Positions 1 through 12,091 of a stretch of DNA of 14,940 nt are shown one piece after another. Source of the DNA: a virus (lineage: Duplodnaviria; Heunggongvirae; Uroviricota; Caudoviricetes); the IMG/VR virus record IMGVR_UViG_2875713109_000008, positions 1 through 14,940 of that record; one strand, written 5' to 3'. The position numbers and the translations under genes are program-made. A model generated the notes under the pieces. That model saw only the letters and a program-made list of their open reading frames with translations, made no database searches and had not been told where the DNA came from. Position 1 is the stretch's first letter, and every line of letters begins with the position of its first letter.

Positions 1-735
1 TTACTCCCTGACAGGGTTCGTAGGCCACTCAATATCAGGTGCAGTTGTTGTATTAACACGGTTCAGCAACACCCGATACTTTTTCCAGGCTTCCAGCAAC
101 GAGTTTTCTTCCTCCGTTGCGATTTCCAGATCTGCAGCATCCTGAAGTGGCGCAATATGCTCACTGGCTACCTGCATCAGGTTGTTTTTTGTTTCTTCCG
201 CCTCCCGGATCCGGAACAGTTTTTCTGCTTCCGTATCCTTCACCCAGGCTGTGCCGTTCCACTTCTGATATTCCCCTTCCGGCGATAACCAGGTGACATT
301 TTCCGGTAACGAGCCAAGTTCAGAAATAAATAACGCGTCGCCGGAAGCCACGTCATAGACGGTTTTTCCCCGATGATCTTCAACGAGATGCCACGATGCC
401 TCATCACTGTTGAAAACAGCCACAAAGCCAGCCGGAATATCTGGCGGTGCAATATCGGTACTGTTTGCTGGCAGACCTGTATGAGGCGGAATATATGCGT
501 CACCTTCACCAATAAATTCATTAGTTCCGGCCAGCAGATTATAAATTTTTATGGTCCGTGGTTGTTCACTCATTCTGAATGCCANNNNNNNNNNNNNNNN
601 NNNNNCGGTACTGTTTGCTGGCAGACCTGTATGAGGCGGAATATATGCGTCACCTTCACCAATAAATTCATTAGTTCCGGCCAGCAGATTATAAATTTTT
701 ATGGTCCGTGGTTGTTCACTCATTCTGAATGCCAT
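1..735 (-). CDS. tfa: Tail fibre assembly protein Tfa (lambda orf-194 family); reading frame carries an in-frame 129-bp repeat plus 21 N
   Basis: Translation [43 protein letters not shown]... matches lambda Tfa from memory. ATG at 735-733 overlaps the stf stop (TAATG). Natural length is likely about 194 aa once the duplicated block is removed. Confidence 0.85.
456..734. repeat. 129-bp exact direct repeat (456-584 and 606-734) bridged by 21 N (585-605); period 150 bp
   Basis: Seen directly in the sequence; copies are identical and the unit keeps the tfa frame (X run in the translation). Confidence 0.9.
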
Positions 736-3700
736 TATGCAAGCCTCACAATATAGTTAAATGCGATGTTTTTGACGGTGTTTTCCGCGTTACCAGCAGC
801 GTTAACGGTGATGGTGTGTCCATGTGAACCAATCGCAACGGAGTGCGTATGAGCACCAATACCGACAGTATGCGCGTGTGCACCTGCAGATGCTGCTGTG
901 CNNNNNNNNNNNNNNNNNNNNNTGACGGTGTTTTCCGCGTTACCAGCAGCGTTAACGGTGATGGTGTGTCCATGTGAACCAATCGCAACGGAGTGCGTAT
1001 GAGCACCAATACCGACAGTATGCGCGTGTGCACCTGCAGATGCTGCTGTGCCGGACAGTGAGTGGCTATGATTACCATCTGTACTGGTATTAGCTAACCA
1101 CCCCGTAGACATACCTACTGAGCCTTGTACACCCCAGGTATTTTGACCTGAGCTTGTATAACCATATTGATAAGTATCTTTAAAAACACTGGGGTTAAAT
1201 CGACGGCCATCTCTATGGCTGTGATTACCAGCTGCATTCGTGCTGCCACTTAAACTATGGGTATGCGCACCAGTGTTATTCGTGGATTTAGTGCCGTAAT
1301 CAAACGACGATGTGGTTTTCGTCCCCAAATCCGTACTGGATGCGCTGGCGCTGTGGGTATGCGATTTAATGCCATCCTGTTCCTGAGACAATACGGCACG
1401 ACCACTGGCGGGCTTGCCCTTAATCGTCCAGCCACGCATATCAGGGATCACGCCTGACGGATAAGCGGCTGCAAGTTTCGGGTAAGCAGATTTGTCAAAA
1501 GTCTGCCCCTGCATCAGGGCATAACCAGACGGAACGGTATCTGATGGCCACGGGATTGGTGCGCCGACTGGGTAGCTTTCTGGTGGAAGATTTTTCGAGG
1601 TATAAACTTCTGCCCAGTCTTCCTCAAAACCATAACCGTCTCTTGAAGAACGGTAGAACAGACCACCATTTCTGTAATGCGCCTTCATCTGCAAGGTCCG
1701 GCAACTTCCGACTCCGGTATAGAAGTTAACCAGAATATAGCTGTCGCCAGAGCGGGTGACATTATAAGCGCCTGATTCGGCATTCCAGGGAACGCCACCA
1801 TCCGCATCGGCATATGTATCCGTTGCCCTTCTGGCAAAAGCAGCCACATGCGCGGCGGTTAAAGTAATATCTTTGGAACCATCAAACTCAACACCAGAAA
1901 CCCGTCTTGGCGTTTGCAGCTTTGTTGCTGTTAATGCATTACCGTTCAGACTTGCGGACAGTTTGGTTCCAATAACCAGTTCGCCGGTTGCGTTATCAAT
2001 AGCAAACGGTCTTAATGTATTCCAGCCACCATAAACATCACCTTGATTGGTAAGCAGCAGGTAAGTTTTAGCGCCATCATTACGCCATAATGCCCCATAC
2101 TCCCCACCTATCATTCGAATCTGATTACCACCACGCGCTACAATTTCGTCTGTGGCAAAAAGTTTTTTGCACGACAAGTTATCGTTAACGATTAACGAAT
2201 GAGACTCATAAAAACCACGCCCACTCTTAAAATCAAGGATAACGTCCGCCGCGATACATTCAGTCGCCGGATTTGTTGCCCCAAACTTATAGGTCGTATC
2301 ATTAACAACGAGATCAGCACCAGGTGTGGATATTGACAGGCCATCTTCGATAAACGCAAAAACAGGGAAAGCAGCGCCATCAACATAGAACACAGAGCGC
2401 AAATCATCGCCCTTATTACTCATCATTATTGAGTGGATGGCTCGTTCATTGTTTTGATATTGCCAGAACATTCCATAAGCATAACGCCCCCTGTCAGTCC
2501 AGCCACCAGGCATAACAAATCCGTTAAACTCGCAGTTATTCATCGGATCGCCTGCGGTTCGCGTTGCCGTGGTGATAATGACCCTTGATGCCAGTTCGCT
2601 TACTGAGCCAGCAGAACGCATAACAACAACAGGGTAATATTTTCCAGATGTTGCACCTGCAGGAGCGTTAACCCGCACATAACGCATACCACGCTTATCA
2701 GCAAAGTCTGTTTTACTGACCGCGTTAATGTTGTTCAGGAAGCGTCCCTTATCGGGTATATCAGCGCCGTTCTGGTCTTTCTGCAGACGTTTCTCTGCAT
2801 TGTCATAGGCTGATTTTACTGCCTTTGGCGTTGCCGCCAGCGTTTCAGACGTACTGTTGGTCGCACTGCTGAGCTGTACTATCCCCTTTTTCGTCGTACT
2901 TGCATCCTCAAGCGCCACGGCGGATGCAATATCCTCTGCCCGTTTTGCCGCTGTCTCGGCGCGCGTTGCCGCGGATTCCGCCGTACTTTTGCTCTGTGCT
3001 GCCGCCGTCGCACTGCCAGCTGCCTCTGTCGCCTTCGTGGATGCTGTCGTGGCGCTGCCCTTCGCTGCGGACGCTTGTCTGGTCGCCTCATCTTTTGAAG
3101 CAGACGCCGATGATGCCGATGACGCCGCCGAACTGGCGGACGATGCGGCAGCCGTTTTTGAGGATTCTGCGCTGGTTTCCGACGCTTTCGCGTTCGTCTC
3201 GGATGTCTTCGCTGCGGAAGCAGACCTCGCTGCTGCGCTGGCCTGTTCAGTGGCTTCGCCAGCCTTCGTTGTGGCTGTTGAAGCAGACGATGCGGCACTT
3301 TCTGCCGATTTTCCGGCGGCGGTGGCACTGGCTGAGGCCTGCCCGGCACTTGTTGACGCGGCACTGGCAGACGACGCAGCCGCTGTTTTTGAGCCTGCCG
3401 CAGCCGAGGCGCTCTGTCCCGCTGCCGTTTCAGAAGACCTGGCGTTTGTCTCAGACGTCTTTGCCGCCTTCGCGGAATTGCCTGCCGCCGTTGCCGAGGA
3501 AGCGGCACTACTGGCGCTTGATGATGCGTTCGTTTCTGATGATTTCGCTGCCTCTTTTGAGGCCGCCGCATCCCGGGCTGAGGTGGCTGCTTCTGACGCC
3601 TTCGTGGTCGCGGCGGATGCAGAAGTGGCTGCTGATTGTTGTGACGCTGCCGCATTCGTTTCTGACGTTTTCGCCGCAGCGGCACTGGTAGCTGCCGCGC

Positions 3701-4283
3701 TTTTTGAGGACTCTGCAGCAGCAGCACTTTTCGATGCTTCACTGGCCTTTGTTGATGCCGTTCCTGCGCTGGAAGATGCTGACTGAGCCGACGACGCGGC
3801 CTGTCCGGCTGACGTGCTGGCTGCGCGTGCTGAGCCTGCAGCATCGGTTGCATGAGTTGCCGCCTCACTGGCAGATGTGCTGGCATCACTGGCTGACTTC
3901 TTCGCGGCTGCCGTGTTCTGTGCCACTGCGGACGCGTTACGCGCCACCTCTTCCACCATCAGTTCAAAACGTCGCAATGCCTCCGGACGGGCATCATCCT
4001 CCGTCATGGCACCGAGAAAATCATTCAGCGTACCGGGTTGAGAATCTTCATACACGGTAATGGTCCCGGCATGTGACGGCGGGAATCCCTCCACCAACAG
4101 AATAACGCTGTACTGCCCGTACTCAACGTCCATGCTGTAACGCCCGGCTTCATCCGGATTTTCTGAGGCCAGCGTGTTCACCACCACCGTGGTGCTGTTA
4201 CGTTTTGCTTTCAGCTGGATTGTGCAGTTCTGTACCGGTTTTCCTGTGCCGTCTTTCAGTACACCTGAAATCTTTACTGCCAT
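735..4283 (-). CDS. stf: Side tail fibre protein Stf (lambda Stf-like N-terminus, long Ala/Ser/Thr-rich central region, His-rich HxH C-terminal repeats)
   Basis: N-terminus [30 protein letters not shown]... and C-terminus ...[12 protein letters not shown] match lambda Stf from memory. ATG at 4283 is preceded by GGGGTG; the ORF track starts at a GTG at 4289. Contains the second N-bridged repeat. Confidence 0.88.
773..1051. repeat. 129-bp exact direct repeat (773-901 and 923-1051) bridged by 21 N (902-922); period 150 bp
   Basis: Seen directly; same architecture as the repeat in tfa. It duplicates the His-rich segment near the Stf C-terminus. Confidence 0.9.
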
Positions 4284-4294
4284 ATTCACCCCAC

Positions 4295-4320
4295 AAAAAA
4301 GCCCGCCTGAACCGGCGGGC
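4295..4320 (-). terminator. Rho-independent terminator between lom and stf on the minus strand
   Basis: On the minus strand a GCCCGCC/GGCGGGC hairpin (6-nt loop) is followed by TTTTTT, just upstream of the stf ribosome-binding site. Confidence 0.55.
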
Positions 4321-4347
4321 TGTCATAACACTGTGTTACCTGGCTAA

Positions 4348-4693
4348 TCAGAATTTATAACCGACACCCACGATGAAACCGTCAGTGCGCCAGTCACCAC
4401 TGCCGGAGCCTTCATAAGCAATATCAATGGCCACGGATTCGGTCGGGTTAAACTGCACGCCAGCCCCCCACGCCAGAGACGTGTTGCTGTGGCGACCGTC
4501 ATCACTTCCGGTCAGCACATCGTGCTTTTTCCCCTTGTTGTCAGTTACGCGAAGATAATCCCCGGAGAAAGTCGACACACGGCTGTAAGCTACACCCGCC
4601 ATCGCATACGCGCTGAACCATTCATTCACGCGCACAGACGGCCCCGCCATTACGCTGAACCAGCGGTTACGAACGGAATCTTCATGCCAGCGG
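4348..4693 (-). pseudogene. lom: 5'-truncated lom (Ail/Lom/PagC-family outer-membrane protein); only about the C-terminal 115 codons remain
   Basis: Translation ...RWHEDSVRNRWFSVMAGPSVRVNEWFSAYAMAGVAYSRV...GFIVGVGYKF matches the Lom C-terminus from memory. The frame stays open upstream but runs into cos-like sequence at about 4693, with no signal peptide or plausible start. Confidence 0.8.
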
Positions 4694-4890
4694 GTAACCT
4701 GTCGGATCGCCGGAAAGGACCCGCAAAATGATAATAATTATCATCTACATGTCACAACGTGCATCTACGCCATCAAACCACGTCAAATAATCAATTATGA
4801 CGCAGGTATCGTATTAATTGATCTGCATCAACTTAACGTAAAAACAACTTCAGACAATACAAATCAGCGACACTGAATACGGGGCAACCT
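4694..4890. other. Lambda right-end (cos-proximal) homologous region, reverse-complemented; homology stops at the cosN right terminus
   Basis: Minus strand reads ...GATCCGACAGGTTAC then lom sequence. Lambda's right end is recalled as ...GATCCGACAGGTTACG, and the downstream window sequence is collinear with the lambda right arm through bor. Confidence 0.6.
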
Positions 4891-4891
4891 C

Positions 4892-5086
4892 ATGTCAACG
4901 AAGAACAGAACCCGCAGAACAACAACCCGCAACATCCGCTTTCCTAACCAAATGATTGAACAAATTAACATCGCTCTTGAGCAAAAAGGGTCCGGGAATT
5001 TCTCAGCCTGGGTCATTGAAGCCTGCCGTCGGAGACTAACGTCAGAAAAGAGAGCATATACATCAATTAAAAGTGATGAAGAATGA
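4892..5086 (+). CDS. Small basic hypothetical protein (64 aa; Arg/Thr-rich N-terminus), conserved lambda right-end ORF (recalled as YlcI/DUF3950-like)
   Basis: ORF MSTKNRTRRTTTRNIRFPNQ... with a GGGG-rich region upstream of the ATG; position matches the lambda/DLP12 right-end gene set. Confidence 0.5.
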   Translation: MSTKNRTRRTTTRNIRFPNQMIEQINIALEQKGSGNFSAWVIEACRRRLTSEKRAYTSIKSDEE

Positions 5087-5250
5087 ACATCCCGCGTTCT
5101 TCCCTCCGAACAGGACGATATTGTAAATTCACTTAATTACGAGGGCATTGCAGTAATTGAGTTGCAGTTTTACCACTTTCCTGACAGTGACAGACTGCGT
5201 GTTGGCTCTGTCACAGGCTAAATAGTTTGAATGATTAGCAGTTATGGTGA

Positions 5251-5457
5251 TCAGTCAACCACCAGGGAATAATCCTTCATATTATTATCGTGCTTCACCA
5301 ACGCTGCCTCAATTGCTCTGAATGCTTCCAGAGACACCTTATGTTCTATACATGCAATTACAACATCAGGGTAACTCATAGAAATGGTGCTATTAAGCAT
5401 ATTTTTTACACGAATCAGATCCACGGAGGGATCATCAGCAGATTGTTCTTTATTCAT
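5251..5457 (-). CDS. Hypothetical protein, 68 aa (lambda p79 / YbcW-like)
   Basis: ORF of 68 aa at the position and size expected for the conserved small gene between bor and cos in lambda-like phages. Confidence 0.55.
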
Positions 5458-5742
5458 TTTGTCGCTCCATGCGCTTGCTCTTCATCTAGCGGTTAAAATA
5501 TTACTTCAAATCTTTCTGTATGAAGATTTGAGCACGTTGGCCTTACATACATCTGTCGGTTGTATTTCCCTCCAGAATGCCAGCAGGACCGCACTTTGTT
5601 ACGCAACCAATACTATTAAGTGAAAACATTCCTAATATTTGACATAAATCATCAACAAAACACAAAGAGGTCAGACCAGATTGAAACGATAAAAACGATA
5701 ATGCAAACTACGCGCCCTCGTATCACATGGAAGGTTTTACCA

Positions 5743-6153
5743 ATGGCTCAGGTTGCCATTTTTAAAGAAATATTCGATCAAGTGCGAAAAGATTTAAACT
5801 GTGAATTGTTTTATTCTGAACTAAAACGTCACAACGTCTCACATTATATTTACTATCTAGCCACAGATAATATTCACATCGTGTTAGAAAACGATAACAC
5901 CGTGTTAATAAAAGGACTTAAAAAGGTTGTAAATGTTAAATTCTCAAGAAACACGCATCTTATAGAAACGTCCTATGATAGGTTGAAATCAAGAGAAATC
6001 ACATTTCAGCAATACAGGGAAAATCTTGCTAAAGCAGGAGTTTTCCGATGGGTTACAAATATCCATGAACATAAAAGATATTACTATACCTTTGATAATT
6101 CATTACTATTTACTGAGAGCATTCAGAACACTACACAAATCTTTCCACGCTAA
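5743..6153 (+). CDS. Hypothetical protein (lambda p78 / YbcV-like); the longest ORF starts at a GTG at 5620
   Basis: ATG at 5743 is preceded by GGAAGG at suitable spacing and gives 136 aa; the 177-aa ORF from 5620 has no ribosome-binding site. Confidence 0.55.
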
Positions 6154-6443
6154 ATCATAACGTCCGGTTTCTTCCGTGTCAGCACCGGGGCGTTGGCATA
6201 ATGCAATACGTGTACGCGCTAAACCCTGTGTGCATCGTTTTTAATTATTCCCGGACACTCCCGCAGAGAAGTTCCCCGTCAGGGCTGTGGACATAGTTAA
6301 TCCGGGAATACAATGACGATTCATCGCACCTGACATACATTAATAAATATTAACAATATGAAATTTCAACTCATTGTTTAGGGTTTGTTTAATTTTCTAC
6401 ACATACGATTCTGCGAACTTCAAAAAGCATCGGGAATAACACC

Positions 6444-6737
6444 ATGAAAAAAATGCTACTCGCTACTGCGCTGGCCCTGCTTATTACAGGATGTGCTCAA
6501 CAGACGTTTACTGTTCAAAACAAACCGGCAGCAGTAGCACCAAAGGAAACCATCACCCATCATTTCTTCGTTTCTGGAATTGGGCAGAAGAAAACTGTCG
6601 ATGCAGCCAAAATTTGTGGCGGCGCAGAAAATGTTGTTAAAACAGAAACCCAGCAAACATTCGTAAATGGATTGCTCGGTTTTATTACTTTAGGCATTTA
6701 TACTCCGCTGGAAGCGCGTGTGTATTGCTCACAATAA
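6444..6737 (+). CDS. bor: Bor lipoprotein (serum-resistance-associated outer-membrane lipoprotein)
   Basis: 97 aa with lipobox LLITGC; MKKMLLATALALLITGCAQQTFTVQNKPAAVAPKE... matches lambda Bor from memory. Convergent with Rz as in lambda. Confidence 0.93.
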   Translation: MKKMLLATALALLITGCAQQTFTVQNKPAAVAPKETITHHFFVSGIGQKKTVDAAKICGGAENVVKTETQQTFVNGLLGFITLGIYTPLEARVYCSQ

Positions 6738-6743
6738 TTGCAT

Positions 6744-6769
6744 GAGTTGCCCATCGATATGGGCAACTC
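6744..6769. terminator. Perfect 26-bp palindrome (GAGTTGCCCATCGATATGGGCAACTC) between convergent Rz and bor; likely bidirectional terminator
   Basis: Seen directly: 11-bp arms around a CGAT core, overlapping the Rz stop codon. Confidence 0.45.
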
Positions 6770-6827
6770 TATCTGCACTGCTCATTAATATACTTCTGGG
6801 TTCCTTCCAGTTGTTTTTGCATAGTGA

Positions 6828-7144
6828 TCAGCCTCTCTCTGAGGGTGAAATAATCCCGTTCAGCGGTGTCTGCCAGTCGGGGGGAGGCTGCATTATCCAC
6901 GCCGGAGGCGGTGGTGGCTTCACGCACTGACTGACAGACTGCTTTGATGTGCAACCGACGACGACCAGCGGCAACATCATCACGCAGAGCCGTTCAGCGG
7001 TGTCTGCCAGTCGGGGGGAGGCTGCATTATCCACGCCGGAGGCGGTGGTGGCTTCACGCACTGACTGACAGACTGCTTTGATGTGCAACCGACGACGACC
7101 AGCGGCAACATCATCACGCAGAGCATCATTTTCAGCTTTAGCAT
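6828..7144 (-). pseudogene. Rz1: Rz1 o-spanin lipoprotein embedded in Rz; native frame is also broken by the 134-bp duplication
   Basis: Rz1 start MLKLKMM... is encoded at 7144-7124 and the Rz1 C-terminus ...[10 protein letters not shown] ends at 6828. The extra 134 bp (not a multiple of 3) separates them in frame. Confidence 0.6.
6857..7124. repeat. 134-bp exact tandem direct duplication (6857-6990 and 6991-7124), no N spacer
   Basis: Seen directly; the two copies are identical and adjoin head to tail inside Rz/Rz1. Confidence 0.9.
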
Positions 7145-7360
7145 CAGCTAACTCCTTCGTGTATTTTGCATCGAGCGCAGCAACATCACGCTGACGCATC
7201 TGCATGTCAGTAATTGCCGCGTTCGCCAGCTTCAGTTCTCTGGCATTTTTGTCGCGCTGGGCTTTGTAGGTAATGGCGTTATCACGGTAATGATTAACAG
7301 CCCATGACAGGCAGACGATGATGCAGATAACCAGAGCGGAGATAATCGCGGTTACTCTGT

Positions 7361-7858
7361 TCATTGCTGACCCCACAAACAGATTTCACGCTCAATCTCA
7401 CGACGAGTCATGAGACCTTTCCATTGCTTACCGCCAGCATATGTCCAGCGACGTAGCTGATCACATGCGCCTTTGATATCGCCCTGGTTTATTTTGCGAA
7501 GAAGCGTCGATGTTCTGAAATTGCCAGCACCCACGTTGTAAACGAATGAGTAAAGAGCGCCGCGCGTTGTTTCCGGTATATCGACTTTGATGTACGGGTT
7601 AATTTGTCTGGCGACAGTGGCAAGGTCTTTATTCAAGAGTGCTTTGCATTCTGCTTTGGTATACGTTTTACCGAGCATGATGTCTTTTCCGGTGTGTCCG
7701 TGACATACAGTCCATACGCCAACGATATCTTTGTATGGTACGTAGCTGACACCTTCCAGACCATCGTTACCACTTGGGCCAGTGATTAACACAGATGCTA
7801 TGGCAATAGCCCCGCCACCAATAGCAGCAGCAACGGCTTTTCGTAATGATGGAGGCAT
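7361..7858 (-). CDS. R: SAR endolysin, phage 21 R-type (T4-lysozyme-like muramidase with Gly/Ala-rich N-terminal signal-arrest-release segment)
   Basis: 165 aa, [44 protein letters not shown]...; start overlaps the S stop (TAATG). Confidence 0.9.
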
Positions 7859-8073
7859 TATTCACCTCTCGCAGCCTTGCGCTTATCTTCTTTAATCTTG
7901 AAATAAAGGTTTGTCAGATACGTCAGCAGGCCAAACACCAGACTACCCAGCACACCTATTGCCGCCCACTGTGAGGGCGTGACTTTATCGAGCAACTGTA
8001 AAAACCAGTACCCGGCACTACCTGCTGAGGTGCCATAGGCGACACCCGTTGTTAACTTATCCATGGATTTCAT
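7858..8073 (-). CDS. S: Pinholin, phage 21 S-type (71 aa, dual-start MKSM motif)
   Basis: [71 protein letters not shown]; GAGGTGGGG ribosome-binding site before the ATG at 8073. The ORF track's longer N-terminus has no ribosome-binding site. Confidence 0.88.
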
Positions 8074-8112
8074 AACCCCACCTCGCAGATGCGGGTGCTG
8101 TGTAATGGAAAT

Positions 8113-8135
8113 AAAAAGGCCACCTGACGTGGCCA
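8113..8135 (-). terminator. Rho-independent terminator right after the methyltransferase stop and before S
   Basis: On the minus strand a GGCCAC/GTGGCC hairpin (5-nt loop) is followed by TTTTTATTT. Confidence 0.55.
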
Positions 8136-8140
8136 CCAGA

Positions 8141-9193
8141 TTATTTCCCCACCAGCTCGTTTATCTCTTTCACTGTCTGGTTAAACCGCTCTGACTCAAG
8201 CTCAACACCTAAGGCCCGACGCCCCAGCGCCATTGCTGCTTTTATTGTGGAACCGGATCCCATAAAAAAATCAGCAACCAGATCACCAGGTCGACTACTG
8301 GCATTGATTATTTGCCTGAGCATATCCGCCGGTTTCTCACACGGATGTTTACCCGGGTAGAACTGAACGGGTTTATGCATCCAGACATCGGTATAAGGCA
8401 CGGAGACTGATACGGAGAAATAGCGCCGGAGAGATTTAAACTCATCCAGCAATTCAGAATATTTGCGATTCAGTGAATCATAAGATGCCACCAGCTGGTG
8501 GTGTGGTTGTTCCAGTTGTTGTTCCTGAAACTTCTCTGCCGCTATACGGGAAAACAGTGCCTGTAACTTCCGATAGTCAGCCTCATTCGGCAACTGCCAC
8601 TGACTGGCACCAAACCAGTGGGAAACCATATTTTTCTTACCTGTGGCTTCGGCAATTTGTTTTGCCGTTATACCCAGTTCGGCACGAGCATCCCTGAAAT
8701 ACGATATCAGCGGTGCCATTATGTGCTGTTTGAGTTCCCTTTCTTTTGCCGCATAGCCGTCACTTTTGCCGCGATATGGCCCCTGGTAATGTTCAGCAAA
8801 CAGAACGCGCTCTGTGGCAGGAAAATATGCGCGCAGACTTTCTTTATTACACCCATTCCAACGTCCGGACGGCTTCGCCCAGATGATATGGTTAAGCACG
8901 TTGAAACGTTCACGCATCATGATCTCAATATCAGATGCCAGGCGATGCCCACAGAACAGGTAAAGGCTTCCGGCAGGTTTCAACACCCGCCAGAACTGGG
9001 CCAGACAGTGGTCCAGCCACTTAAGGTAATCTTCGTCCCCTTTCCACTGATTGTCCCAACCGTTGGGTTTCACCTTGAAGTACGGCGGATCGGTAACAAT
9101 CAGGTCAATGGAATCATCAGGCAGGGACTGAATAAAATGCAGGCAATCAGCGTTGATTAAATCAACACTGTTTATTTTTACAGTATTTTTCAT
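8141..9193 (-). CDS. DNA methyltransferase, beta-class N6-adenine/N4-cytosine type (motif IV DPPY precedes motif I FxGxG); no restriction partner visible
   Basis: 350 aa with VTDPPYF near the N-terminus and FFMGSGST near the C-terminus. The start at 9193 has no clear ribosome-binding site. Confidence 0.82.
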
Positions 9194-9342
9194 GGATCAG
9201 TAAGCGTAACTCTGGTAGGCTCACTCTGCTTTTGCGCTAAAGCAGTGGGCCGTGGTTCGCTTGTGACCAGTAAGCATGAGCGAATGGCTGGCAGGTGCTA
9301 CCAACACCCACCAGCCGCCCATTTTCACAAATTAAAAGTCCT

Positions 9343-9561
9343 TCATAGCTGAAGGCGTCTGTAACAGCCGAACTGGTAATCTGCCAGCCCCGCCATAACC
9401 AACTGGGTCAGTATTAACTGACAGCGTTCGCGTGAAAGATATGTGTTTTGTGCAATCTCCCCGACTGTTGCCGGTTCGATGCTTAATTCATTAAAAACAA
9501 CTTTCGCCGTTTCTGTCATATCTTGCTGTTTTAACATGTCTTTTTTCCTTCTGGTTAACAT
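9343..9561 (-). CDS. Small hypothetical protein (72 aa), possibly helix-turn-helix-like
   Basis: ORF only; segment ATVGEIAQNTYLSRERCQLILTQLVMAGL resembles a DNA-binding helix pair. No clear ribosome-binding site, so start is uncertain. Confidence 0.35.
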   Translation of the reverse strand: MLTRRKKDMLKQQDMTETAKVVFNELSIEPATVGEIAQNTYLSRERCQLILTQLVMAGLADYQFGCYRRLQL

Positions 9562-9658
9562 GACATACCAATAACTCTTGTCTAAAAAGCCAGCAAGATA
9601 AAAAGTCAGTATTCACGACCACCAGCGTGTTTACCGTACTGCACCAGGTTTACAGGTA

Positions 9659-9685
9659 CAAAAAAACCCGCTCGACGGCGGGTTT
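9659..9685 (-). terminator. Strong rho-independent terminator on the late (minus) strand downstream of the antisense side of the OLD-like gene
   Basis: On the minus strand a CCCGC/GCGGG hairpin is followed by seven T; on the plus strand it is preceded by an A-tract, so it could act in both directions. Confidence 0.6.
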
Positions 9686-9788
9686 AAGTTGTGTGGCGAA
9701 GTAACCACTCTTGAGAGCATATCTGATTATTTACGATTGTAAATAATATATTCCCCCCCAATAATTAGATTGAGAAAACATTACCATA

Positions 9789-9817
9789 TTGATAATAAGG
9801 CAATTGACATAATTATA
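9789..9817 (+). promoter_or_regulatory. Candidate sigma70 promoter for the OLD-like gene (TTGATA, 17-bp spacer, ATTATA) in AT-rich leader
   Basis: Hexamers seen by eye in the AT-rich region; many alternatives exist there, so this is tentative. Confidence 0.25.
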
Positions 9818-9950
9818 AAAATCATTCTTGGTTGATTTTAAAACAACAAATGCACGATATTTACCCAATCATTGATGAATACATCTCTAAATGTTATAAA
9901 TTTATTGTTTTTCTAAAGATAACTCTCATTCATATCAGGAAAGATAAAAA

Positions 9951-11402
9951 ATGTCAGACATAAAAAATATACTAAAATGCATGTACTTTGATAAAAATAG
10001 ATACTCAAACTTTGGCTCCGTAATTAAAAGTCTAGAGATAAATGGATTTCGAGGAATAAAAAAACTAACATTAAATATAAATTTTCCGGTAACTGCAATA
10101 TCAGGGCTAAACGGCGCTGGGAAAAGCACTCTTGGGCAGTTAGCAATATGCGCATATAAAAAACCAGTTACAGCCCGTGAATATAAGAGATTATATATTA
10201 AAGATTTTTTCCCTGTATCTAAAGCCGATCCAGCCCCTTTCGATAATGACGCCAGTGTCATTTATAAATATGAAACAAATGATTCAACGAAAACACAAGA
10301 TGTGACTGTCACTCGCATAAAGTCTTCTTGGTCTGGATATAAAAGACAACCAGAAAGACACTGTTTTTACATTGGTTTTACTGTCTATATTCCAAAAGTA
10401 GAACGTAGAGATATAAGTGTTTATGGCGGTAAAGACTTTGATTTAACAGAGAGAAGAAGCGTCGACCATTCAGTAATATTGAAGATGGCAAAAATAATAG
10501 GTCATCCATATGATGATATCGCATTCCAAGGAATTTCTCATAGAGCACGTCGTTCAGAAATTGGTATTGTTGAAAGACTTGGGTATTCTTATTCTGAAAA
10601 TAACATGGGGTTTGGCGAAGGAAGAGTTCTTTATACGGTTGATATGCTTGAAACAGCTCCAGAGCAAAGTCTTTTCGTACTAGAAGAACCAGAAACATCT
10701 CTTCATGAAAGCGCACAGTATGAATTTGCAAAATATTTAATGGAAGTATGTCAACGTAGAAAACATCAAATAATATTATCAACACACTCAAGTGTGATAT
10801 TAAATGCTTTACCTCCTGATGCACGAAAATTACTTATTAGAGATCAGACTGGTGTCTATATCAAAGATGGAATTTCAACAACTCATGTGAGATCAATACT
10901 GTCTGATGGGCAGTTTAAAGGGCTGCATATTTGCGTAGAAGACCAGTTTGCAAAAGTTTTACTTAGTGAAGTAATTAGAGCAAAGCGGAGAGACATTCTT
11001 AAATCCATTCAAATCACTGATATTGGAGATAAAGATGCAGTCCGACAAGCAGTCGAGGTATTCAAGAAAGCAGGCCTTAATGTTATTGCCGTAAGAGATG
11101 CAGATGTTGGAGAAAACATTAAAGATGATTTATTTTCTTTCCCTGGCAATAGGCCACCAGAAGTAGAAGTATTTCAACATGAGGAAGTAAAAAAATTCCT
11201 CTACAAGGAGTATCATATTGATTTTGATTGGTTAATAAAAAAGGAAGGGATTAGTGATCATCACAATTACACTCAAGCAATTGCTAAAGAAGCAGAATGT
11301 GAGGAGGAAGTAATTAGAACTTTAGCAATTAAAAAATATATTGAAATTATTGATGAGAAATTTGACCCACTTATTACAAATATAGTAAGCAAAATAAAAT
11401 AA
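9951..11402 (+). CDS. OLD-family-like protein: N-terminal ABC-type ATPase fused to C-terminal TOPRIM-like domain; candidate defence or superinfection-exclusion nuclease
   Basis: 483 aa. Walker A GLNGAGKST (nt 10104-10130), Walker B LFVLEEPETSLH (from nt 10671), H-loop ILSTHSS, then ICVEDQ (Glu) and IAVRDADVGE (DxD) TOPRIM-like motifs. AGGAAA ribosome-binding site before ATG. Opposite strand to the flanking phage genes and much more AT-rich than them. Confidence 0.6.
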   Translation: MSDIKNILKCMYFDKNRYSNFGSVIKSLEINGFRGIKKLTLNINFPVTAISGLNGAGKSTLGQLAICAYKKPVTAREYKRLYIKDFFPVSKADPAPFDNDASVIYKYETNDSTKTQDVTVTRIKSSWSGYKRQPERHCFYIGFTVYIPKVERRDISVYGGKDFDLTERRSVDHSVILKMAKIIGHPYDDIAFQGISHRARRSEIGIVERLGYSYSENNMGFGEGRVLYTVDMLETAPEQSLFVLEEPETSLHESAQYEFAKYLMEVCQRRKHQIILSTHSSVILNALPPDARKLLIRDQTGVYIKDGISTTHVRSILSDGQFKGLHICVEDQFAKVLLSEVIRAKRRDILKSIQITDIGDKDAVRQAVEVFKKAGLNVIAVRDADVGENIKDDLFSFPGNRPPEVEVFQHEEVKKFLYKEYHIDFDWLIKKEGISDHHNYTQAIAKEAECEEEVIRTLAIKKYIEIIDEKFDPLITNIVSKIK

Positions 11403-11412
11403 CAAACCAGCA

Positions 11413-11447
11413 GGCGCTAATTACTAAAAACCTTGTACATTAGCGCC
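11413..11447. terminator. 9-bp perfect inverted repeat (GGCGCTAAT / ATTAGCGCC, 17-nt loop) between the convergent OLD-like gene and Q; candidate tR'-like or convergent terminator
   Basis: Seen directly; on the minus strand a T-rich tract follows (TGGTTTGTTATTTTATTTT); on the plus strand the U-tract is weak. Confidence 0.4.
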
Positions 11448-11574
11448 ACCCTCAAATAAATCAGTGGTTATTAAATCCCCACAAAAACATTAATATAAAG
11501 CACAAACAGTCCACCCTCCTTAATTTCATGCTAACAATACAAATTAAAAATCCAGATACTCATAAAATATCTTT

Positions 11575-11946
11575 CTAGATATTTGAGTCCATTTCCAATT
11601 CTATTTCTAACATTATCAACATACCTTCAATGATGCCTTCTGCCTTTTGCAATAAGCGCCCAACCCAGCAATCAGAACGCCCATGTTTACGGGCAAGCGC
11701 CATAAACGTCATACCACCTACATAATAATCTACTAATAAATCGTGCAAATCGCTGTTGTTCTTTTTCAGACGGGCCATGCACCCGCAAATGATCATCGCG
11801 TCATCGTCACAACATTGCGGGCGGGATTTTACTTTTGAAGGAAGTAATCCCTTAAAACCGGCAGCAATGGACGACCAGGTCACATCCTCATGATTATTAG
11901 CCGCCCATGCCCCCCAACGTTCAAGAACCATTTGAATATCACGCAT
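11575..11946 (-). CDS. Q: Late-gene antiterminator Q, phage 21/82 (QuuD-like) family
   Basis: [62 protein letters not shown]... with a cysteine-rich zinc-binding-like motif. GGAGG ribosome-binding site before ATG at 11946; an alternative upstream ATG at 11961 has none. Confidence 0.8.
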
Positions 11947-12091
11947 CAACTTCCTCCACAAAATCAGGCCAGCACGCCTATTGCCAACACACGGTCGATA
12001 AAACGAAATATCAGCTCCAGCTGGGAGCCATACTTCTCTTCAAATGCCACGGTATCCATTTTTCAACAATGTCACAGCAAGAGGTGAAATA

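Follow-up and report, generated by a model that had tools for sequence, protein, structure and literature searches.

Has the lysis cassette of an E. coli prophage acquired a natural fusion of its two spanin genes, or did the fusion arise only when the genome was assembled? The question is raised by the window, i.e. the whole stretch of 14,940 nt analysed here, in which two exact copies of a 134-nt unit adjoin within Rz and Rz1, to our knowledge the only well-studied fully embedded gene pair, and link them in a single open reading frame (ORF). The window corresponds to positions 4346614-4361553 of the E. coli sequence CP035331.1 (GCA_004116875.1), a scaffolded chromosome of 4,818,513 bp that contains N runs and is absent from the RefSeq ‘complete genome’ set. 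The prophage it covers is defective and decaying, and resides at thrW/proA. A literature search returned nothing on CP035331, GCA_004116875 or QAU88808, the latter being the deposited product of the fusion frame; the similarly numbered accessions CP035325 (ST410) and CP035339 (ST224) serve as references elsewhere in the literature.

The repeat and its effect on the spanin genes

The locus is a lambdoid lysis cassette on the minus strand, composed of S, R and Rz/Rz1 and followed by the convergent bor gene (Table 1). TRF reported a single tandem array in the window (6856-7124; period 134, 2.0 copies, 100% matches, 0 indels), and a repeat search placed the two copies at 6856-6989 and 6990-7123 with 100% identity, in agreement with the original prediction of two identical 134-bp copies arranged head to tail. 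When checked directly, the period-134 identity extended over 269 nt, that is 2x134+1. The unit may therefore equally be written as 6857-6990, which places the predicted repeat start of 6857 inside a 1-nt phasing ambiguity, and the microhomology at the junction amounts to 1 nt only. In the coordinates of CP035331.1, the repeat spans 4353469-4353737 (derived by offset). An exact repeat of 134 nt is beyond chance, and it is present in the deposited record.

Since 134 is not a multiple of 3, the Rz frame, after reading through copy 2 in the normal way, enters copy 1 in the Rz1 frame, giving a 178-aa product with two Pfam domains (PF03245 and PF06085). The translation agrees with the frame mechanics proposed beforehand and likewise with the proposed ORF length and its Rz1 portion (residues 8-60), whereas the Rz portion comprises residues 1-125 instead of 1-119, a figure that does not sum to 178. 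Similarly, the expected loss of the native Rz1 frame was borne out, yet not after about 51 codons: residues 1-52 are kept and extended by ‘SA’ to 54 aa, while the last 8 residues are gone.

Both parts of the product are recognisable as spanin components. PF03245 matched residues 29-128 (E 8.6e-40), and an N-terminal hydrophobic stretch, i.e. the transmembrane segment of an i-spanin, is visible in the translation. As to the o-spanin, PF06085 was found in the 54-aa ORF as well as in the tail of the fusion; besides, there is a lipobox (LVVVGC, with Cys20), and the Rz1 start codon lies inside Rz. What the record does not encode as deposited are full-length chains (Rz 153 aa, Rz1 60 aa), for Rz breaks after residue 125 and lacks 126-153, while Rz1 breaks after residue 52 and lacks 53-60. 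Thus, both spanin components are altered and the ORFs of S and R are whole, as had been anticipated. Full-length chains emerge only once one repeat copy is taken out: Rz then has 153 aa with 152/153 identity to lambda Rz (the sole difference being S2N at residue 2), and Rz1 is identical to lambda Rz1 at 60/60 positions.

Table 1. Coordinates of the features discussed, given as positions in the window.
Feature	Position	Strand	Description
Contig overlap 1	456..734	.	129 nt + 21 N + same 129 nt; tfa/stf boundary
Contig overlap 2	773..1051	.	129 nt + 21 N + same 129 nt; 3' part of stf
bor	6444..6737	+	Lipoprotein gene, PF06291; convergent with Rz
‘Fusion’ ORF	6828..7364	-	178 aa; Rz 1-125 + Rz1 8-60; ATG at 7364; deposited as QAU88808.1 ‘lysis protein’
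Second discriminating site	6841	.	149 nt left of inferred left-contig end 6990
Repeat copy 1 (134-nt unit)	6856..6989	.	Minus-strand reading: second, Rz1 frame; 100% identical to lambda's one copy
Rz1 remnant	6980..7144	-	54 aa = Rz1 1-52 + ‘SA’; ATG at 7144; signal peptide, lipobox Cys20 and proline-rich region kept
Repeat copy 2 + shared extra base	6990..7124	.	Minus-strand reading: first, normal Rz frame
Allele-discriminating site	7140 (collapsed 7006)	.	76/80 IMG/VR Rz alleles differ; 149 nt right of inferred right-contig start 6857
R	7361..7858	-	165-aa phage lysozyme, rrrD / phage-21 type, PF00959; intact; DNA 100% identical to CP057555.1
S (essD)	7858..8073	-	71-aa phage-21-type holin, PF04971; intact
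N6/N4 DNA methyltransferase	8141..9193	-	350 aa; PADLOC MTase_II, E 3e-152; immediately upstream of S
AAA_15/AAA_21 ATPase	9951..11402	+	483 aa; between Q and late genes, opposite strand

The junction in other sequences and the locus in relatives

If the duplication were genuine, its junction might be encountered in sequences obtained independently from this strain or from related ones. It was found in none of those searched. The junction 31-mer ATCATCACGCAGAGCCGTTCAGCGGTGTCTG had no exact match in IMG/VR, in the GTDB representatives (one genome per species) or in JGI metagenome contigs, and a 40-nt query centred on the junction, each half of which is too short to seed a match alone, went unmatched both in a set of 5,426 complete E. 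coli genomes and among 50,697 phage records. BLAST queries of 81 nt were uninformative, as each half aligned as a piece of its own and the pair was linked across 135 nt. At the protein level, QAU88808.1 is a singleton in its 90%-identity cluster within a set of ~15 billion proteins.

Comparison with the same locus in related genomes, which had been suggested as a check of the original prediction, returned one copy throughout and thus spoke against a real duplication. An uninterrupted, full-length Rz gene of 459 nt, i.e. a single copy, was present in 80/80 IMG/VR loci (the best 80 of 578 relatives), and the complete E. coli genomes gave the same picture: with one copy removed, the collapsed sequence of 1,367 nt aligned to many of them in a single piece at 99.6%. 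In the closest relative, CP057555.1, window positions 4694-6990 found a counterpart with 1 mismatch, and the 5,068 nt of 6990-12057 one with 0. On the subject sequence these two alignments share 135 nt; CP057555.1 therefore holds one copy, and across 7.4 kb the window differs from it by the extra 134 nt and one SNP only. That the nearest relative is single-copy and otherwise identical but for this SNP argues against a genuine duplication, as does the restriction of the junction to one record among the collections searched. Identical copies whose collapse restores collinearity with the closest relatives are, on the other hand, what an unmerged contig overlap should leave behind. The position of the repeat is also suggestive in this regard: the Rz segment occurs at a median of 2 places, and a maximum of 10-13, per E. 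coli genome, and a segment present in multiple copies is a typical break point in short-read assembly.

Two contig overlaps in tfa/stf

The original prediction had further pointed to two N-bridged repeats in tfa/stf. We recovered both, each consisting of 129 nt, 21 N and the same 129 nt again (Table 1). Against phage PhiR34_1, the subject ranges of the three pieces overlap by exactly 129 nt, and deletion of 585-734 and 902-1051 resulted in one collinear alignment of 4,381 nt. There is hence no real gap at either site; the contigs overlap, and the two N-bridged repeats are proven contig overlaps. The record therefore contains other joins of this kind, namely two 129-nt overlaps with 21 N each.

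The contig ends at these joins are regularly spaced relative to sequence differences. Beyond its last mismatch to PhiR34_1, at 445, the left contig continues for 139 nt, to 584; likewise, 139 nt separate the start of the right contig, at 923, from its first mismatch, at 1062. The middle contig, 296 nt long, stops on either side 11 nt inside these mismatch sites, 445 and 1062. Such spacing would be expected if an overlap or de Bruijn graph built from 150-nt reads or k-mers reached 149 nt and 10 nt were trimmed from each contig end; the arithmetic is 149-20 = 129, and 129+21 N = 150. Identity to PhiR34_1 is 95.6% in the left contig (window 1-584) and 100% in the middle contig (606-901), so that contig ends coincide with switches between paralogous tail-fibre alleles. 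Strain OXA-181 was considered as a proxy for the co-resident tfa allele and dismissed: the contig ends 154 nt beyond the last mismatch to this strain (430), and further mismatches to it fall within the middle contig, whereas PhiR34_1 fits.

As deposited, stf and tfa are interrupted by Ns, and a 150-nt deletion per site would restore both. The scaffold may join tfa pieces from two prophages, resulting in a chimeric tfa gene.

A distance of 149 nt at Rz

In the comparison with 80 IMG/VR alleles, which represent the best of the 578 relatives, the Rz allele of the window differs from 76 at collapsed position 7006 and from 71 at 6766. In one of these loci, L055, the differences nearest to the repeat are at 6841 and collapsed 7006, with none between. 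Adding 149 to 6841 yields 6990 and subtracting 149 from 7006 yields 6857; these are the ends of the repeat under the alternative 1-nt phasing, and the resulting overlap is 134 nt. When symmetric offsets from 60 to 259 were scanned under both phasings, only 149 matched an observed allele (that of L055). The same distance is thus found on both sides at Rz (149 nt) and at all four N-bridged contig ends (139 nt plus 10 trimmed), although the fit was noticed post hoc, polymorphic sites are fairly dense and 6841 varies in only 1/80 alleles. For a genuine duplication, there is no biological reason to end exactly 149 nt from allele-discriminating sites.

Other accounts of the repeat ends were rejected. 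With k = 127, a SPAdes-like de Bruijn model would give overlaps of 127 or 2k-M, in agreement with neither 129 nor 134. A mosaic boundary in Rz at 7117 was rejected as the cause, for it falls within the repeat, 7 nt from its right end, and predicts contig ends elsewhere. Likewise, a chimera of two prophages at the join was dismissed, as APEC O78 shows no identity switch at the repeat and its nearest mismatch is at 7312.

The mosaic boundary itself, at minus-strand Rz codon ~83, separates Rz allele families. Prophages with a 155-aa Rz (L003, L085, L087, L090, L092, L093) share 97-99% identity with the window to the right of 7117 (e.g. L003, L085, L087); to the left they are unrelated and lack bor.

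Origin of the repeat

Taken together, the Rz repeat very probably represents two overlapping contigs that were joined without trimming in a short-read scaffold, the real locus being ordinary. The sequence of events might be reconstructed as follows. With the Rz/Rz1 segment residing in several lambdoid prophages per E. coli genome, the assembly graph would break there. The bor-side contig would be extendable only 149 nt past its last copy-specific base, 6841, to 6990, and the R/S-side contig could reach back no more than 149 nt from its first copy-specific base (collapsed 7006, window 7140), which puts its start at 6857. An overlap of 134 nt between the contigs would follow, and they would have been concatenated with this overlap left in, such that copy 1 would be the untrimmed end of the left, bor-side contig, ending at 6990, and copy 2 the start of the right, R/S-side contig. 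The true sequence would accordingly hold a single copy and an intact embedded pair of Rz (153 aa) and Rz1 (60 aa). This scheme presupposes a second prophage with an L055-like Rz allele in the same genome; no such allele was seen in the 24.6 kb of it covered here. Given such a paralogue, the shared node would measure 164 nt and might be dropped by a common minimum-contig-length filter. The software step behind the Rz join could have been direct concatenation, or else gap filling that gave 10 nt back to each side.

The original prediction had taken the missing N spacer and the different unit length to mean that the repeat may be real. This argument lost its force in view of the proven overlap joins nearby, the junction being private to the record, the single copy in the nearest relative and the unit length of 134 nt, which follows from a reach of 149 nt. 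Yet, there are points that count against an untrimmed overlap. The Rz junction shows neither Ns nor the 10-nt trimming of the two proven overlaps, so that a different joining step must be assumed; and in a defective prophage, a real inactivating duplication would escape counter-selection.

The first of these points could be accommodated by a gap-closing artefact, a sub-variant of the overlap explanation that differs in the software route only. Here, an N-bridged overlap would have come first (ends at 6980 and 6867, with 21 N), to which a gap filler then added 10 nt per side, treating the gap as closed. The 20 nt between the trimmed ends (6981-7000) would correspond to the two 10-nt extensions, one base under the 21-N gaps. 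However, this purely inferential route leaves unexplained why the two other gaps stayed open, and we regard it as conceivable rather than likely.

A genuine, very recent 134-bp tandem duplication in the isolate, produced by replication slippage or illegitimate recombination and inactivating Rz in a decaying prophage, appears improbable. The repeat does stand in the record without Ns, with a length and layout unlike the two N-bridged overlaps; the prophage is devoid of head/tail and early genes when compared with CP057555.1 and CP123255.1, so that its lysis genes are probably unselected; and zero divergence between the copies is expected of a very young event, too. Small as it is, the 1-nt microhomology at the junction does not exclude a real event. 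On the other side, no more than this one nucleotide is shared, and we saw no inverted repeat that could drive template switching, as a scan around the repeat returned one weak pair (14 nt, 79%) away from the end points. In addition, two proven overlaps of nearly the same size lie 6 kb away. Together with the single-copy relatives and the 149-nt spacing, these observations favour the untrimmed contig overlap.

Further features of the prophage

Relative to CP057555.1, CP123255.1 and APEC O78, two regions are missing from the prophage: the nu1-terminase-head-tail block, located between ylcI and lom/stf, and the whole early region, located between Q and xis/int. The window has seamless joints at 4694-4702 and 12051-12057, where the flanking homologies overlap by 9 nt and 7 nt, respectively. 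Here the decaying prophage may have undergone real microhomology deletions, or the scaffolder may have skipped contigs.

Two accessory genes were noted in the same region (Table 1). The 483-aa ATPase had its best PADLOC match with the candidate defence protein HEC-04 (E 3.9e-47), and weaker ones with the ATPase-Toprim, AriA and GajA models. An identical protein is found in 803 blocks of a public collection, and the gene occupies the same place in many lambdoid prophages; it is probably a prophage-borne anti-phage gene. The 350-aa methyltransferase, with no restriction partner seen, is a putative orphan phage methylase.

Relation to known lysis systems and implications

The closest counterpart of the locus is the spanin of phage lambda, with Rz as the i-spanin and Rz1 as the o-spanin. 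Lambda DNA contains the 134-nt unit once, at 100% identity, and in both cases Rz1 lies in the +1 frame inside Rz (PMC5295617); it is only in the deposited sequence that Rz, deprived of its last residues, continues in the Rz1 frame. The gene order, in turn, is that of the DLP12 / phage 21-type cassette (essD-rrrD-rzpD/rzoD-bor) known from E. coli genomes and phage 21, with the difference that rzpD measures 462 nt in these relatives and the present record is longer by 134 bases.

Contig overlaps left unmerged are a known source of false duplications in scaffolded draft assemblies. The Rz repeat shares with this class of error the exact copies, the position in a multi-copy repeat, the restoration of collinearity and ORFs upon collapse, and the companion N-bridged overlaps; it differs in the absence of an N spacer at the join.

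Would the 178-aa frame have any significance of its own? With Rz1 in the +1 frame of Rz (PMC5295617), an ‘Rz-Rz1 fusion’ ORF will result from any -1/+2 frame error where the two genes are embedded; the fusion frame thus follows from their geometry and is no designed feature. When the 178-aa product served as the query of a homology search, it brought up dozens of frameshift-derived proteins of 132-134 aa that combine PF03245 and PF06085. According to the alignment, these slip from Rz into the Rz1 frame after residues 77, 103, 108 or 112. They differ from the product studied here in that they go back to single-base frame errors at various positions, stem mostly from ENA contigs of ~3.5 kb, and in no case carry the duplicated 45 residues; among the homology matches, only one (P0001) has 178 aa with 100% coverage. 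The 132-134-aa proteins (within P0010-P0120) include dozens of singletons and apparently derive from one repeatedly sequenced, error-rich construct or amplicon with the lambda lysis cassette. The same search context brought up Rz-like proteins of 264-285 aa (P0033, P0034, P0094) annotated in fungal assemblies (Neocucurbitaria, Fusarium, Anthostomella), which probably reflect contamination of these assemblies with E. coli or lambda DNA.

A single polypeptide that would touch both membranes might also call to mind the u-spanins (e.g. T1 gp11), which carry a lipoprotein signal at the N-terminus and a transmembrane domain at the C-terminus (PMC5295617). However, the ORF described here has the opposite order, its lipobox is internal and it lacks the CC2 domain of Rz. 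Signal peptidase II would presumably be unable to process an internal lipobox. The fusion ORF is thus neither a member of the u-spanins nor a functional analogue of them.

If the duplication were real after all, its consequences could be gauged from lambda, where nonsense mutations in Rz abolish lysis at every tested position up to codon 152, chain length being strictly required, while truncations of Rz1 are tolerated from codon 54 onward (I54X being the shortest tolerated variant tested, and I54N being defective) (PMC5295617). By this comparison, Rz would be non-functional, and Rz1, with 52 residues plus ‘SA’, would be just shorter than I54X and of uncertain status. The cell would be left with an inner-membrane-anchored Rz(1-125)-Rz1(8-60) chimera beside a nearly complete Rz1, a natural ‘disembedding accident’, which would merely add one more inactivating lesion to an already defective prophage.

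The value of the case lies mainly in quality control. The prophage regions of CP035331.1 hold unmerged contig overlaps with N spacers and, very probably, without them, and caution is due with tandem repeats of ~130 nt in this record, perhaps also in sister records produced by the same pipeline; such repeats should not be trusted. As a practical diagnostic, the 149-nt rule could be applied in such cases: a repeat that ends at a distance of one read length minus one from paralogue-specific SNPs points to an assembly artefact rather than to biology. QAU88808.1 itself is probably a database artefact and should not be taken as a natural spanin fusion.
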